Positions 1 to 5,421 of a stretch of 64,000 nt of DNA are shown here, in pieces. The notes beneath the pieces are model-generated. The model was given only the letters and a program-made list of their open reading frames with translations. It did not search any database and was not told where the DNA came from. Made by a program: the position numbers and the translations under genes. Source of the DNA: an uncultured Gammaproteobacteria bacterium (GTDB lineage Bacteria; Patescibacteriota; Microgenomatia; Levybacterales; UBA12049); the NCBI GenBank assembly GCA_964540055.1, contig CAZILC010000003.1, positions 21,599 to 85,598 of the forward strand, read 5' to 3'. How positions within the stretch are numbered: the stretch's first letter is position 1; the number at the start of each line of letters is the position of its first letter.

Positions 1-1569
1 CAAGTGTTTCAATTGTCTTTCAACGACTCCCGGAAATACCCCAAGTTTTTCTGCTATAGCAGGCCTTCCTGGAAGTTTTTCACCCTTGCTAAGCTGTGTC
101 AGAAGTTCTCTCAGATAGATATCAACCCTCTTTGCATCGGATATATAATCGCCGCTCACGCGGGTAACTCGTGGTTCATTTGTATTAAGAAGCCCCCGTT
201 TTCCCAGTTTTTGATATGCTGTTTGGATTTGCCATTTACTTTCGCCATAATATTTGGCGAGTGTTTGTTGTGGTGGAAGTGGCATACCAGGCTCTAGTAA
301 ACCTGTTTCAATTCCTACAGCGATTGCATCTTGTAAATGTGTTGACAATGAGAGATCCGGTTGTGGCTGCGTACGAACGACAAACGGATCAAAATCTGGC
401 ATATCAAGAATCAATCGGGCATTTCGAAGTTGTGTAAGTGCTGCGCGTGCTGTTATTGGAGGGACATTTGCAATTGCTGCAAGTTCTCGTGAATCGGTAA
501 TACTGGTTCCAGGATGCAGCTCAGTAATAACATTCTGCAGTCGTGAGGCAAGTTGTAATGCTAGTGGTTCCTGTTCTTGGACTTGGGGGTTAAGAGGGCT
601 TTTTTCAAGTGTTTCACTAATTTTTTGAGCAACATCACTAATTGTCTCATGCTCACTCATAACAGGAGCAACAAAAACGTCAGCTGTTTGAGCTAAAACG
701 GGGGTCCGTACTCCTTCAGGGGCTGGTATATCAGTTTGTGCTGGTTTTGTCTGGTCAGGTGATGTTAAACCAGAAATGTGGAACATAGGTGTGGAAGGAT
801 GTATAGTTGGGCTGTTACCAGATACATGTAAGATAATTGGCGTGGGTGCGTTGCCTACTCCGGCTGTATCAAAAAAGGTAAAATAGTGAGTTGGCACTCC
901 TTGCCAAGGAGAGGAAACATGCGTTGTTCCATGTCTTTTTTTCGTTCGTTTGCGGTGCGGATTGAACCTTTCTCCGGTTCGTGAAGTCGGTCTTTGATCT
1001 GCAGGTCCTAAGGCCTCTTCAAGCTCGAGTCGTTCATCAGGTTCTATACCTCTTTCTCTGACAAAATATCCCTGATCCGCTTTTGGAACAAGTACATCAC
1101 CGAGTAGTTCCCGAGCTTTACGAATCGTAACGGTACTTACATCAAATTGTTCCCTCAGTTGTGCCAGAGAAGCAGTTTGGCTTCCTGGGGGGAATCTTCT
1201 TCCATCCCCTATTTCAGTAAGCATATGTGCAGCGACCCATTCTTGCAGTGACTGATCATTGGATGCCAAAATCTCTTTTTTGAATTCACTTAATGCTTCC
1301 TGGTCAATTGTGGGTGCAATAGAGCTTTTACTGCCTTGTGAGACAATAAGCCCCCGTTTTTTGAGTTCCCGTTTTGTTTCACTAATAATATGTCGGCTGG
1401 TACTATACCGGGTTTTGAGTGCGTCAATTGCAGGGAGCGGTTGTCCAGGTTGGTATTCCCCCGCGACAAAGCTATCAATGAATGCAAGCATGGTTTCTTT
1501 CCGGGTACGATTAGGCACAGGTCCTGTTTCGACTTGGTGTCCCTGATGAATAATTTCTGTTGTTGGCAT
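1..1569 (-). CDS. 3'-truncated CDS running off the window start (ATG at complement of 1567-1569; at least 523 aa, no stop before position 1). It is an array of at least five GntR-like winged-helix HTH modules.
   Basis: Manual minus-strand translation, not in the ORF track because there is no in-window stop: MPTTEIIHQGHQVETGPVPNRTRKETMLAFIDSFVAGEYQPGQPLPAIDALKTRYSTSRHIISETKRELKKRGLIVSQG... ending ...GEKLPGRPAIAEKLGVFPGVVERQLKHL. Modules fit G-x2-LP-x4-L-x3-[YF]-x-[VS]S-x3-[IV]-x2-A-x3-L-x2-[RK]-GL[IL]. The first 20 codons were rechecked base by base. Confidence 0.55.
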   Translation of the reverse strand, partial: MPTTEIIHQGHQVETGPVPNRTRKETMLAFIDSFVAGEYQPGQPLPAIDALKTRYSTSRHIISETKRELKKRGLIVSQGSKSSIAPTIDQEALSEFKKEILASNDQSLQEWVAAHMLTEIGDGRRFPPGSQTASLAQLREQFDVSTVTIRKARELLGDVLVPKADQGYFVRERGIEPDERLELEEALGPADQRPTSRTGERFNPHRKRTKKRHGTTHVSSPWQGVPTHYFTFFDTAGVGNAPTPIILHVSGNSPTIHPSTPMFHISGLTSPDQTKPAQTDIPAPEGVRTPVLAQTADVFVAPVMSEHETISDVAQKISETLEKSPLNPQVQEQEPLALQLASRLQNVITELHPGTSITDSRELAAIANVPPITARAALTQLRNARLILDMPDFDPFVVRTQPQPDLSLSTHLQDAIAVGIETGLLEPGMPLPPQQTLAKYYGESKWQIQTAYQKLGKRGLLNTNEPRVTRVSGDYISDAKRVDIYLRELLTQLSKGEKLPGRPAIAEKLGVFPGVVERQLKHL

Positions 1570-1632
1570 GGGTATATTATAGGATATTTTAGATTAAATG
1601 TAAACTATAGGTTGTTTTGATGAGTTGGATTA

Positions 1633-4548
1633 TTATGCAGCGAGTGCATCAAGATATTCTTGAGGTGCCCGGTTTGCCGGAATGATATGAGTTTTGATTG
1701 CAAATGGCTTATTTCGAGCTTCAAAATAACGGGTTGTACGAGTAATTAATGGCACATCATCCGGTATGCCATATTGACTGGCCTCAGTTGGCGTGGGCAT
1801 TTTGCTGCTTGTTCGTTCTTTCGTTTCATCAGGATCTGCAAATGCATGAGGCTGAATTGGCAAATTGTCTAAACTGGTACGAAGCTCCGTAAGCCAGAAC
1901 ATTGGTATATCTGTTTGCGTTATATCATATATATGTGCAGTTTTTGCACCTGCTAGCTTAATACCCCGAACATGACGAGTTTCATTGACAAGTTGCGTTG
2001 GAGGAATGTCTAAAACTTCTGCTTTAATTTTAGAGGGGATAAGTAAATATGATCGAGTTCGTTGTGCTGGTGTGTGTCCCCGTTTTCTCACCTCAGCAGC
2101 CCAAACTCTTGTATCATTGATATACGGGATTTCATTCATATCCGCAATAACTTCACGTTGCTGATCAGCTGGCAGGATAACTTCGGGTAGCTGTGTATCT
2201 TCTGTCCTTGGCAATTCCTTTGACAATGTTTCAGGTGGAGATGCTTCTGAAGTTGCAGGTGACTTAATGTCCACTGTGTGAGGCTCAGATTGTGATTCAA
2301 AAGTCATAAATCCAGCAACTCTCCCGAGTCGCATAATAGCTTCTTGTGTCGTTTCCTCAGGAGTGATTCTATGTTCAAAACTATAATTGACGAGTCCATT
2401 GAGAGAATGACCATCAAGGAATGCAAATTTACTTTTAAGAGCAGAAAAAGTTAACTCAGATACAGGAATTGCTAGTTCTTGAGCTGCTTTTTGGAGTATT
2501 TCGTATATTACTTTTCCTTCAATTCTCCCCCAATAAATCCTTTGATTTGTTCGTAGCGATGTTATCACGTCATCAGTTGGAGGATTACCTGCAATTTTTT
2601 CTCGCAGGAGTTTAATGGGATCTTTTGTGCTGCTATGACTAACGCTTAAAAAGTGTTTATACAGTCCTGATAGCGTTCTGCCCCCAAGAAGAGAAAAATG
2701 TTCGTCCAAATGAGTTTTCCCCCAACGGGTGATAGGTGGCAGTCTGTCTCCTTCTGCATCTCTTACCCTTTCCAAAAAGTTTCGAAGCACATCACCTGCA
2801 ATGTGGCCCCAAGGAACTGGTCTATCAAGTGAAAATGACAAAATTATATCATCAACCGATAGATGCAGATCCAAATCCTGTCTCATTTCAGTGATTGCAT
2901 CTACTCCGTTTTGGAGTCCTTTTTTATAAAAATGTTTTATTAACCCTTTAAGCTTTTTTTCATCCAGACTACTAAATTCTCTATCAAAATCTTCCCTTCT
3001 CCACAGTGAAAGCGGCGGTAATGCAACCTCTTCTAAATTTCTTAATCTGATAAGAAACGCTTTTATTACCTGTGGTGTAACCCGAGCCCATTGTATTGGT
3101 CTATCTAAATTGATAGCAGTATGCACATCTTCTGCAGTCATTGCAATTCCAACTCGCTCGTTAAGAAATGTTATTGGATCCATGTCATCTCGTTTTTTTG
3201 CCTCTCGAGCGGCATAGTTGTACAAACCTCCCAACGTATGTCCTTCTAAAAATGCCTTAGGCAACCTAAGATCATCTGAACCCAACATTGAAGGCGCGAG
3301 TCCCTCTTGTATCTGCTCAGAGAACCACCAAAAAAACTCTCCTAATACTTCAGGTGAGACATGTGGCCATTCTACCCTTTTACCTCTTCTAACAGCTTCG
3401 ATGAGTGCTAGTGTATTGTGATACATGGGAGCCTCAGGTGTCCGTTTTGCACTTACGATAGGTTCTTCACTAAGTCCGCTTGGATCAGTTCCTACTTGTC
3501 CTCCGTTTGATGTTATTGCCATAAAAGAATCAAAGTCTGGTAAATCGGGTACACGCACGGAGTCGCTATAATATGGGAGAGAATGCAGCATAGCCATACC
3601 TACCACATCTCCTTCTATCCGTTGCTCTTGTAACAGAGCTGCATCAGTCATGATTGCATTAGTGACATGTTCTATTTGAGATAACCGTAACACAGGAGCA
3701 GCTGCTAGGTATGAAGCGGCAATTGCCATAACCCATCTCACATCTTCTTCAGGAAATCCAGTATCATGAGTATCTTTCAGTAAAGACAGGATTCTTTCTT
3801 TATGCCGTTCCCGCAATTCAGGCAATGGCTCTTTTCTTTCCCACATTTCTCTCACATAGGAAATACCGCCTGATACGTTTTGTGGAATTTCACCTGGAGT
3901 ATGGTGATATGTTATTGCTTCTTGCCCTGATAGAGCTGTTTGATCATGTTTTGTACGTTGAGGTACAACAACAGTCGTCTCATCCGTTGTAGTTGGTGGC
4001 GCATCCGCACGTGCACGTATATTTGCAGCAACCTGATGATCTGCATGGGTGATTTCTTTAAGGATTCCTTGTATTATCGTATTTCCTCTACGTACTCTTC
4101 TTGCATGATCTAATTGGGGCACGATTCCTTCAGGTATTGCCGGCTCCTCGACATCTGGTATGGTAACACCTTGCCTATGAAGCCAGGGAGGTTGCATAAG
4201 TATTTCTTCTTCGAGATCGTTTAATACTTCCCGTTGTTGTGCACTACTGCTCACAATCCTATTCCTTCTGTCTGATGGGTCAGGTACAATGACACCTCTT
4301 CTTCTAAATACAGATATTGCTCGATGAACTACTCCGACACTGGAATGATAGTTTTCAACGAGTGAGAGTGTTGTAGGAAATGGTGAACCAGGTTGTAGTA
4401 CGCCTCCTTTGATTTGTGCTAGCAGATCAATTTCAACTTCTTGTTGGGTTATAGGTATTCTTCGCATTTTTGGTCCAGTTGATCCTTCATTTCTGTCCGG
4501 TTTTGCCATAATACTGGGGAATATAGCACTTTTTGAAGAGAGAATCAA
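1633..4548 (-). CDS. Large (971 aa) hypothetical protein with an N-terminal GntR-like winged-helix module followed by four roughly 75-aa internal repeats. It is a paralog of the downstream partial gene.
   Basis: ORF track. N-terminus QPGSPFPTTLSLVENYHSSVGVVHRAISVFRRRGVIV fits the GntR HTH pattern and aligns with the N-terminus of the 1..1569 protein. The repeats each contain W-x2-I-x-G-x-V-x3-FL ... LPP ... L-x-G-x2-L-x-GLY-x2-F (for example QWARVTPQVIKAFLIRL...LPPLSLW...LKGLIKHFY and PWGHIAGDVLRNFLERV...LPPITRW...LSGLYKHFL). Confidence 0.6.
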   Translation of the reverse strand: MILSSKSAIFPSIMAKPDRNEGSTGPKMRRIPITQQEVEIDLLAQIKGGVLQPGSPFPTTLSLVENYHSSVGVVHRAISVFRRRGVIVPDPSDRRNRIVSSSAQQREVLNDLEEEILMQPPWLHRQGVTIPDVEEPAIPEGIVPQLDHARRVRRGNTIIQGILKEITHADHQVAANIRARADAPPTTTDETTVVVPQRTKHDQTALSGQEAITYHHTPGEIPQNVSGGISYVREMWERKEPLPELRERHKERILSLLKDTHDTGFPEEDVRWVMAIAASYLAAAPVLRLSQIEHVTNAIMTDAALLQEQRIEGDVVGMAMLHSLPYYSDSVRVPDLPDFDSFMAITSNGGQVGTDPSGLSEEPIVSAKRTPEAPMYHNTLALIEAVRRGKRVEWPHVSPEVLGEFFWWFSEQIQEGLAPSMLGSDDLRLPKAFLEGHTLGGLYNYAAREAKKRDDMDPITFLNERVGIAMTAEDVHTAINLDRPIQWARVTPQVIKAFLIRLRNLEEVALPPLSLWRREDFDREFSSLDEKKLKGLIKHFYKKGLQNGVDAITEMRQDLDLHLSVDDIILSFSLDRPVPWGHIAGDVLRNFLERVRDAEGDRLPPITRWGKTHLDEHFSLLGGRTLSGLYKHFLSVSHSSTKDPIKLLREKIAGNPPTDDVITSLRTNQRIYWGRIEGKVIYEILQKAAQELAIPVSELTFSALKSKFAFLDGHSLNGLVNYSFEHRITPEETTQEAIMRLGRVAGFMTFESQSEPHTVDIKSPATSEASPPETLSKELPRTEDTQLPEVILPADQQREVIADMNEIPYINDTRVWAAEVRKRGHTPAQRTRSYLLIPSKIKAEVLDIPPTQLVNETRHVRGIKLAGAKTAHIYDITQTDIPMFWLTELRTSLDNLPIQPHAFADPDETKERTSSKMPTPTEASQYGIPDDVPLITRTTRYFEARNKPFAIKTHIIPANRAPQEYLDALAA

Positions 4549-4557
4549 ACTATAGGT

Positions 4558-5421
4558 TTACTTTGTTTGCTTTTCTGTGGCTGTGAGGAGGTTTTCCATC
4601 AGCATTGCTACGTTGACGGGGCCGACTCCGCCTGGGGTTGGGGTATAATATGAGGCTATTTCTTTAATTGATTCTTCATCATAGTCGCCGTGGAGTTTAT
4701 TTTCTTTATTACGGTTGATGCCGACACTGATGAGAATTACTCCTTTTTTCAATGATTCTGGTTTTATTGTATTTTCCCGACCCACGGCTGAAATGACGAT
4801 ATCGGCTGTTTTCAGAATTTCATCAGGATTTTTTGTTTTACTGTCAATCAGATGTGGTGTTACGTTTAGTTTCTTCAAATACTCGATGATCGGTCCCCCG
4901 CCGGTTGGGCCTTTACCCAAAAGCGCGATATTTTGTTGCTGTAACCATTTCTCAAAACCTGTTTTTTTCTTCGTTTCGCCTGTATAGATTTCCTCCAATA
5001 TTTTTACAACGGAAAGCGGGAGCGGTAATGTATAGGGTGATTTCGGATGGAAGCCATCGACGTCTTTTTGAGGATTTGTTGTCAGCTCAAGCTTTTCTAC
5101 ATCTATTTGATCAGGCAGCGGGCGTTGAATTAAGATTGCGTGCACATATGGATCTTCATTTAACAATTTCACTTTTTCGAGAAGTTCATCTGTTGTAACA
5201 TCAGTTTTATAATTAAGAATAGTAACTTTTGCCCCGATCTCCTCCCCTTTTTTCTGTTTCAAGGTAACGTAAGCAACAGATGCCGGGTGTTCACCCACGA
5301 GGATAACGACAAGATGTGGAATAATTTTTTTCTTTTTAAGATGAGCAACGCGTTTTTCCAGGTCTTTATACAGTTTCTCAGCAATTTCGCGTCCGCTTAG
5401 CTTCATGCTTGTATTATACAT
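4558..5421 (-). CDS. folD: Bifunctional methylenetetrahydrofolate dehydrogenase/cyclohydrolase FolD. The true start may be the internal MKLSGREIAEK at 5403.
   Basis: MKLSGREIAEKLYKDLEKRVAHL...VILVGEHPASVAYV...LIQRPLP...DVDGFHP...GKGPTGGGPI.. are typical FolD N- and C-domain motifs. Confidence 0.88.
   Translation of the reverse strand: MYNTSMKLSGREIAEKLYKDLEKRVAHLKKKKIIPHLVVILVGEHPASVAYVTLKQKKGEEIGAKVTILNYKTDVTTDELLEKVKLLNEDPYVHAILIQRPLPDQIDVEKLELTTNPQKDVDGFHPKSPYTLPLPLSVVKILEEIYTGETKKKTGFEKWLQQQNIALLGKGPTGGGPIIEYLKKLNVTPHLIDSKTKNPDEILKTADIVISAVGRENTIKPESLKKGVILISVGINRNKENKLHGDYDEESIKEIASYYTPTPGGVGPVNVAMLMENLLTATEKQTK

Follow-up and report, generated by a model that had tools for sequence, protein, structure and literature searches.

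Two candidate GntR/HutC-derived multi-domain proteins at the folD–arginine junction of a Levybacterales genome

The 64-kb stretch of DNA analysed here (the window; 64,000 nucleotides of contig CAZILC010000003.1, assigned to the Levybacterales) opens with two minus-strand genes, P0002 and P0001, whose products carry winged helix-turn-helix (wHTH) modules of the GntR type, five in P0002 and one, more weakly matched, in P0001. Members of the GntR family contain in almost all cases one N-terminal wHTH and one C-terminal effector or oligomerisation domain (PMC4333415), a plan that a first-pass annotation of this DNA had given more simply as one HTH plus an effector-binding domain, and both products depart from it: P0002 combines five wHTH modules with a helical-bundle domain, and P0001 places about 700 residues of other domains between a wHTH and a UTRA-like domain. 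The two represent an architectural departure within the known GntR family and not a new kind of system. Our best explanation, for which we see roughly an even chance, is that they form a fast-evolving, lineage-specific, GntR/HutC-derived pair of multi-headed transcription-factor-like proteins, probably auto- or co-regulated through a shared promoter element. Proteins and loci used for comparison are cited below by P and L numbers.

1..1569, minus strand: P0002 gene, first 523 of 775 codons; stop beyond the window edge; Pfam GntR 87.9 bits in five stretches
1633..4509, minus strand: P0001 gene, 958 residues plus stop; the gene callers' product, starting at ATG 4509

The minus-strand frame described earlier from 1569 to 1 is uninterrupted (523 codons, zero stops) and contains all five peptides quoted for it; the full-length product of 775 residues was retrieved from the protein collection (105.7-kb NCBI contig). 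The 971-residue model of P0001 was abandoned: its start, TTG 4548, is the beginning of TTGATT (4548-4543), a hexamer of the −35 type, and ATG 4509, giving 958 residues, is therefore the most likely start. With lengths of 958 and 775 residues, the proteins are not the giants they had been called. Window positions 1290-5314 are reproduced at 100% identity in the independent Logan assembly L001 (run SRR9179560). The two co-oriented products align at their N-termini as first noticed (28.7% identity over 94 residues; E 3e-6 to 4e-4 by search), and this common, homologous N-terminal wHTH makes them partial paralogs. Nowhere in the 64-kb window was a tRNA or tmRNA found, nor an Rfam family reaching its gathering score.

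P0002 is an array of five GntR-type modules in two groups. It scores 87.9 bits in five stretches against Pfam GntR (PF00392; gathering score 27 bits), and GntR is the top Pfam match for every module scanned singly, confirming the number of modules first reported. They are not strictly consecutive, as had also been claimed, since two (residues 22-172) and three (residues 332-552) flank a linker of about 150 residues that is probably disordered.

1294..1506, minus strand: P0002 wHTH module 1 (m1), residues 22-92; GntR 31.4 bits, above 27; basic, isoelectric point (pI) 9.5
1054..1272, minus strand: P0002 wHTH module 2 (m2), residues 100-172; GntR 19.2 bits, top match for the module
577..1053, minus strand: P0002 inter-array linker, residues 173-331; 37% P+S+T+Q, without family match
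364..576, minus strand: P0002 wHTH module 3 (m3), residues 332-402; GntR 17.5 bits
142..363, minus strand: P0002 wHTH module 4 (m4), residues 403-476; GntR 29.6 bits, above cutoff; HTH_36 24.8 bits
1..132, minus strand: P0002 wHTH module 5 (m5), residues 480-552; GntR 25.1 bits for the full module; pI 10.2; cut by the window edge at residue 523

The top PDB matches of module 4 are the DNA-binding domains of PdhR and YvoA. Outside the window, residues 577-775 constitute a separate C-terminal domain of about 200 residues with no matching Pfam family, and its AlphaFold2 model, built from a six-sequence alignment, is mostly helical (predicted local distance difference test score, pLDDT, 81.5; predicted template modelling score, pTM, 0.82). 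Free-standing homologs of about 200 residues were found for this domain (P0004, P0005, P0007, P0009 and P0027; at most 38% identity, E down to 7e-18). That they might be the second half of a split P0002 was ruled out, their conserved upstream partner being a 523-residue multi-pass membrane protein; the window contains no homolog. These homologs (about 202 residues) always follow a large gene, encoding 523 residues at the loci of P0004 and P0009 and 467 or more at that of P0005; in L083 (4385-6609) the 523-residue membrane protein matches no Pfam family. Close to the free-standing homologs there are genes for DsbA, thioredoxin or both, and L083 also carries a thioredoxin-reductase-like gene; here the domain seems to be used in another setting, possibly one linked to redox chemistry.

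P0001 contains one wHTH, a predicted helical segment that we call domain X, four copies of a 93-residue helical repeat and a UTRA-like end.

4246..4470, minus strand: P0001 N-terminal wHTH, residues 14-88; weak GntR match, 19.7 bits, E=6.5e-4, below 27; pI 11.2
3550..3927, minus strand: domain X, residues ~195-320 of P0001; predicted helical; also in the L008 sigma-like protein and an 815-residue protein of L002
3097..3375, minus strand: 93-residue helical repeat, copy 1, residues 379-471
2818..3096, minus strand: 93-residue helical repeat, copy 2, residues 472-564; included in the AlphaFold2 model
2539..2817, minus strand: 93-residue helical repeat, copy 3, residues 565-657; included in the AlphaFold2 model
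2281..2538, minus strand: 93-residue helical repeat, copy 4, residues 658-743; shorter and more divergent
1636..2139, minus strand: P0001 C-terminal UTRA-like domain, residues 791-958; matches the P0019 C-terminus, E=1e-10

The N-terminus of P0001 gives weak PDB matches to FadR and YvoA. Its C-terminal domain also matches a partial gene of L002 (gene0; E=1e-4), which in turn scores 33.7 bits against Pfam UTRA (PF07702; cutoff 23.8), and for a three-sequence profile of this domain the top PDB match, which spans the domain in full, is the YvoA/NagR UTRA domain, at a marginal E=0.047. In phrog_10724 (253 positions), the N-terminal part matches a P0002 wHTH and the C-terminal part the P0001 C-terminus (E=1.4e-6). 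By sequence comparison, P0001 starts and finishes like a HutC-type regulator, and domain X and the four repeats, some 700 residues, lie in between; having these ends, it would be a HutC-type regulator split by an insert.

The repeats had first been described as four tandem units with a W...FL...LPP...L-G-x-L-x-GLY signature, which is correct, and with a period of about 75 residues, which is in fact 93. Their interpretation as degenerate GntR modules is contradicted by three lines of evidence: they have no Pfam match at E≤10; the repeat profile aligns with a 12-module GntR profile at an hhalign probability of 0.2%; and the two-repeat AlphaFold2 model (pLDDT 84.1, pTM 0.75) consists of helices only, about five to a repeat, without a beta-hairpin wing, and thus lacks the winged-helix fold. 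Most copies are acidic or neutral. A likeness to Fis (E about 0.007-0.03) was rejected, being without structural support; the matched segment presumably lies outside the Fis HTH. The repeat recurs in two other proteins, both times alongside GntR modules, namely P0015 (four GntR modules and two repeats; E=3e-14 to P0001) and a 927-residue protein of L040 (two GntR modules and three repeats), which brings the copies to nine. The repeat profile retrieved no further relative in a word-indexed search of 5.8 billion clustered proteins, and a search of a viral fold library gave no match. As modelled, the 93-residue repeat is a previously undescribed helical unit without detectable structural relative.

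Domain X links P0001 to the sigma-70 family. Residues 201-314 of P0001 are 40% identical to residues 106-218 of the L008 protein (E=1.5e-14), so that domain X has a homolog at the N-terminal end of a protein that matches Sigma70_r4 and is encoded at the corresponding place in that genome. Unlike a sigma factor, however, neither P0001 nor P0002 matches Sigma-70 region 2 or 4 (Pfam PF04542, PF04545) at E≤10, and domain X is not a Pfam-defined sigma region; no PDB relative of it was found.

The closest known system is the GntR/HutC group (NagR/YvoA, DasR). The wHTH modules match Pfam GntR, the order of wHTH and UTRA-like domain in P0001 is the HutC order, and YvoA/NagR is the top PDB match both for the wHTH and for the P0001 C-terminal profile; the differences are the five wHTHs of P0002 against one, the insert in P0001 and the replacement of most hallmark contact residues (see below). 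The first-pass annotation had recognised no precedent for an architecture made solely of iterated winged helices. Neither half of this statement holds: P0002 ends in a helical bundle and P0001 has a single wHTH followed by other domains, and proteins with three to six GntR modules and little else exist in Streptomyces, Nonomuraea and metagenomes. An exhaustive phmmer search with P0002 returned 36 proteins at E≤1e-3, most of them of this kind, with for example three modules in about 230 residues or five in about 400 and Pfam GntR totals of 186-243 bits; they are named just "GntR family transcriptional regulator" or "winged helix-turn-helix domain-containing protein". WP_358318901.1 (Nonomuraea, three modules), WP_307527659.1 (Streptomyces umbrinus, five) and WP_384389057.1 (Streptomyces) resemble P0002 in having several GntR wHTHs and no canonical effector domain. 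Unlike P0002, with its divergent modules, long linker and helical bundle, and unlike P0001, with one module only, the actinomycete proteins are compact (about 75 residues per module), near-canonical and free of extra domains, and the matches to them are weak (E 1e-7 to 1e-3); the relation is one of shared domain, not orthology. P0010, P0011, P0014, P0016 and P0031, among others, are likewise compact tandem GntR proteins with near-canonical modules and no effector domain. Among solved structures, all 14 GntR-family chains matched by a three-module query were matched in a single stretch each. The tandem winged-helix examples in our literature results are eukaryotic, archaeal or kite subunits of structural maintenance of chromosomes (SMC) complexes. 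By analogy, Rpc34, A49, ESCRT-II, ScpB/MukE and STK19 may be compared with the pair in function, since they use two or three successive winged helices for combined DNA and protein contacts; their winged helices are of other types than GntR, and five modules or extra domains like those of P0001 and P0002 occur in none of them.

Both genes are preceded by the same promoter- or operator-like element.

1576..1613, minus strand: P0002 element; AACCTATAGTTT (1613-1602) overlaps TTTACA (1604-1599), then 17 nt, TATAAT (1581-1576) and 6 nt to ATG 1569
4520..4558, minus strand: P0001 element; AACCTATAGTTT (4558-4547) overlaps TTGATT (4548-4543), then 17 nt, TATATT (4525-4520) and 10 nt to ATG 4509
Elsewhere: L002 at 820 and 3425; L003 at 817 and 3345; L029 at 2521; L038 at 6396; L040 at 7893; L037 at 2027

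The exact 12-mer AACCTATAGTTT occurs twice in the window, once 5' of each gene, and the P0001 copy begins at the folD stop codon. Immediately 5' of both genes the sequence resembles a sigma-70 promoter; that of P0002, TTTACA-17-TATAAT, shows 11 of 12 matches to a sigma-70-like consensus. In about 805 kb of sequence from the clade, the relaxed pattern [CT]TATAGTTT[GA] has 24 copies, with some 18 expected (an estimate from base composition). Nine of these lie 24-37 nt 5' of family gene starts and a tenth lies 55 nt before a 182-residue gene of L003; such copies occur in the window, L002 and L003 (two each) and in L029, L038 and L040. The L037 copy sits at a contig end directly after folD. Alignment yields the consensus CYTATAGTTTG-N17-18-TGnTATAnT, followed by 6-11 nt to ATG, and by eye the short leaders of the element-bearing genes show no Shine-Dalgarno sequence. 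The element has been retained while the coding sequences diverged to below 30% identity, which implies that it is functional; it could define a dedicated class of promoters, serve as an operator or do both. It is common for GntR regulators to recognise operator sites overlapping their own promoters. A different promoter precedes the gene pair of L004. Beyond the family, the same CTTATAGTTTG promoter element precedes a 279-residue protein in L012 (14457-15339, plus strand) with, by eye, a cyclic-nucleotide-binding-like N-terminus and two LuxR-type HTHs, and the element also occurs 5' of an apparent sugar transferase gene in L042.

Whether the modules can bind DNA was assessed from their contact residues and charge. 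Specific binding is marked by Arg38, Arg48 and the wing residue Gly69 in NagR, with Arg35 and Arg45 as the FadR equivalents (PMC4333415). Our alignment to these positions, anchored on a NagR sequence verified solely by the residue numbering of PMC4333415, is less certain in the wing than in the helix and gives the following Arg38/Arg48/Gly69 equivalents.

P0002 module 1: D/R/S, keeping the Arg48 equivalent only
P0002 module 2: A/T/D, all three changed
P0002 module 3: R/P/D, keeping the Arg38 equivalent only
P0002 module 4: Q/K/P
P0002 module 5: P/P/Q
P0001 module 1: L/V/S, all three changed

In the relatives P0015, L004-A, L038 and L040, which are closer to canonical, most modules still have residues equivalent to Arg48 and Gly69, indicating that DNA binding was the ancestral function of the family. 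The strongly basic modules of the pair (pI 9.5-11.2) are m1 and m5 of P0002 and the single one of P0001. From this pattern of residues and charge, it is plausible that some heads still bind DNA, but doubtful that the others do.

Several observations weigh against a HutC-derived, DNA-reading pair. The full Arg38/Arg48/Gly69 triad is present in no module of P0001 or P0002, and three of the five P0002 modules (m2-m4) are acidic or neutral. Pfam UTRA finds no match in P0001 directly at E≤10; the assignment is transitive, via the L002 gene, and the YvoA profile match is marginal. A full-text literature search found no paper describing tandem GntR arrays. HutC-type operators follow the palindromic consensus GT-N-TA-N-AC, are bound by a dimer and are relieved by a small-molecule effector; the one candidate site found, CYTATAGTTTG, does not fit this consensus and could simply be a special −35 or UP element read by a sigma factor.

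Part of this evidence also supports the main rival explanation, which we rate as clearly less probable, that the wHTH arrays no longer bind DNA and serve as protein–protein scaffolds or adaptors, perhaps for the transcription machinery. Known tandem winged-helix proteins (ESCRT-II, ScpB/MukE, Rpc34, A49) work partly in this way, and many published ones act through protein contacts. The hallmark Arg/Arg/Gly contacts are gone from most modules, with changes that differ between modules, and the acidic or neutral character of m2-m4 extends to most of the 93-residue repeats. The transcription machinery could be the partner because domain X is common to the sigma-like protein of L008; sigma region-4-like motifs are also seen by eye at the C-terminal ends of P0015 and the L002 815-residue protein. 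The strongly basic m1, m5 and P0001 wHTH, the contacts kept by the near-canonical relatives and the missing sigma region 2 and 4 matches in P0001 and P0002 all argue the other way.

The genomic setting shows P0001 and P0002 to be members of a wider family. The FolD encoded in the window is 73-82% identical to that of loci mostly labelled Candidatus Levybacteria, Levyibacteriota or Patescibacteria, with a few third-party-annotation (TPA) "SMAG" labels that disagree. In L004 (GCA_035533875.1) the order gyrB-ppa-gyrA-folD is followed by a 441-residue protein with three GntR modules and by P0003 (704 residues, five modules), matching the order in the window; FolD is 75.5% identical between the two loci, whereas identity among the GntR-type proteins is only 23-33%, and neither their lengths nor their sets of modules agree. 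Further occupants were found at the folD junction of other loci.

L003: P0019, 825 residues, five GntR modules and a UTRA-like domain
L002: three consecutive family genes
L029: a gene of 447+ residues with one weak GntR module
L038: two genes with a UTRA-like domain
L040: a 488-residue sigma-like gene (weak region 2/4 matches, below cutoff), just upstream of the 927-residue gene with two GntR modules and three repeats
L008, 10366-12252, plus strand, right after folD: a protein of at least 629 residues with Sigma70_r4 (30.3 bits, above cutoff) and domain X, running off the contig end

Region-2 motifs are also visible by eye in the L008 protein. Family genes are absent at L027, which has the closest FolD (82%), and at L010, L012, L031, L032, L034, L035 and L076; at the empty loci folD is followed by arginine-pathway genes, and L034 has a WhiB-like gene instead. 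Since synteny is kept in L004, further members occupy the same junction and modules recombine (P0015, P0019, L040), comparison of these sequences indicates that this is a real, evolving gene family rather than a set of chance open reading frames. As its occupants vary from one to three GntR-array genes through sigma-like (L008, L040) or WhiB-like (L034) genes to nothing, the folD–arginine junction is, judged from the loci compared (L002-L004, L008, L010, L012, L027-L040 and L076), a variable hotspot that repeatedly holds transcription-factor-like genes.

This patchiness bears on two further explanations. The idea of a multivalent nucleoid-associated or chromosome-organising factor, proposed by the first-pass annotation, in which many weak winged-helix contacts would bridge or coat DNA, seems quite improbable to us. 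Several wHTH modules on a flexible chain, specificity residues degenerate enough to suit low-specificity binding, and the adjoining gyrB and gyrA genes are consistent with it. A core organiser, however, would not be expected to be missing from L027, L010, L012, L031, L032, L035 and L076 or to vary widely in module number and type at orthologous positions; most modules have lost the hallmark DNA-contact residues; the gyrase genes also neighbour loci that lack the family, so that this linkage is uninformative; and, leaving aside the promoter element, a search for repeated DNA motifs around the genes produced nothing but two-copy matches at the level of chance.

We consider it similarly unlikely that a mobile or defence-type variable island carries the genes as cargo or as its regulators, keeping them only transiently and with an architecture of little functional meaning, or that, at the extreme, they are decaying. 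Their patchy presence at a single hotspot would fit, as would protein identities of 23-33% where FolD reaches 75%, module shuffling, the matches to PHROG families, and the word-indexed search of 5.8 billion clustered proteins, which gave nothing beyond the exact query sequence for either protein. A scan of GTDB genomes and viral contigs with P0001 gave no match and did not recover the source genome itself either. Against such an origin, the reading frames are intact at 958 and 775 residues, the AlphaFold models of the 93-residue repeat and the P0002 C-terminal domain are confident, and several loci have the promoter element in conserved form. Searches for relatives in phages and viruses, phage tblastn included, gave none, and the genes listed in the examined flanks include no recognisable integrase or transposase, although no dedicated search was made. 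For defence systems, PADLOC gave only weak wHTH-type matches (CasR, CARF-associated), read as generic HTH similarity.

We therefore return to the regulatory pair as the preferred explanation; its GntR lineage, the transcription-factor-like occupants of the hotspot (L008, L040, L034) and the conserved promoter/operator element together suggest a regulatory role. P0001 and P0002 would be separately promoted members of the GntR superfamily within the folD–arginine hotspot. In a normal GntR dimer each wHTH reads one half-site; one chain with several non-identical reading heads could engage a number of sites simultaneously, and these might differ from one another. Among the modules, the basic ones (m1 and m5 of P0002, m1 of P0001) would be the likeliest DNA binders, and the acidic or neutral modules and the 93-residue repeats more probably spacers or protein-interaction surfaces. 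The P0002 helical bundle and the P0001 UTRA-like domain may mediate self-association and possibly ligand sensing. The strongest candidate for a common site of auto- or co-regulation is CYTATAGTTTG, which in P0001, P0002 and most relatives overlaps the −35 box.

A broader and more doubtful proposal is that GntR arrays, the 93-residue repeat, domain X and the portable helical bundle make up a Levybacteria-specific, fast-recombining module toolkit, a distinct class of single-chain, multi-headed initiation or regulation factors driven from a dedicated leaderless promoter class. Bacteria of the candidate phyla radiation (CPR) typically have a small transcription-factor repertoire, for which such a toolkit, if real, might partly compensate. 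To our knowledge, gene regulation in CPR bacteria is poorly understood, and a hotspot of transcription-factor-like genes with a shared promoter element offers a testable entry point. Single-chain arrays of three to six heads with new domains, which occur in this CPR clade and in simpler form in actinomycetes, suggest another bacterial route to DNA-binding specificity. No major paradigm is changed by these proteins, whose function we infer; the 93-residue repeat is a reasonable target for structure determination.

Two minor observations concern the comparison loci. The TPA "SMAG" records L009, L010, L012, L015 and L017 encode FolD 67-76% identical to that of the window, and L009, L010 and L012 share the ppa-gyrA-folD order of Levybacteria metagenome-assembled genomes; the labels of all five (for instance Acidiferrales, Sulfotelmatobacter, Saccharimonadales or Limnocylindrales) look unreliable. 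In L004 (8518-9000 and 10001-10450), the N-termini of the two adjacent GntR-array proteins are rich in G, P and R, match no family and are 50% identical over about 160 residues, and this similarity suggests that the pair arose by recent tandem duplication.

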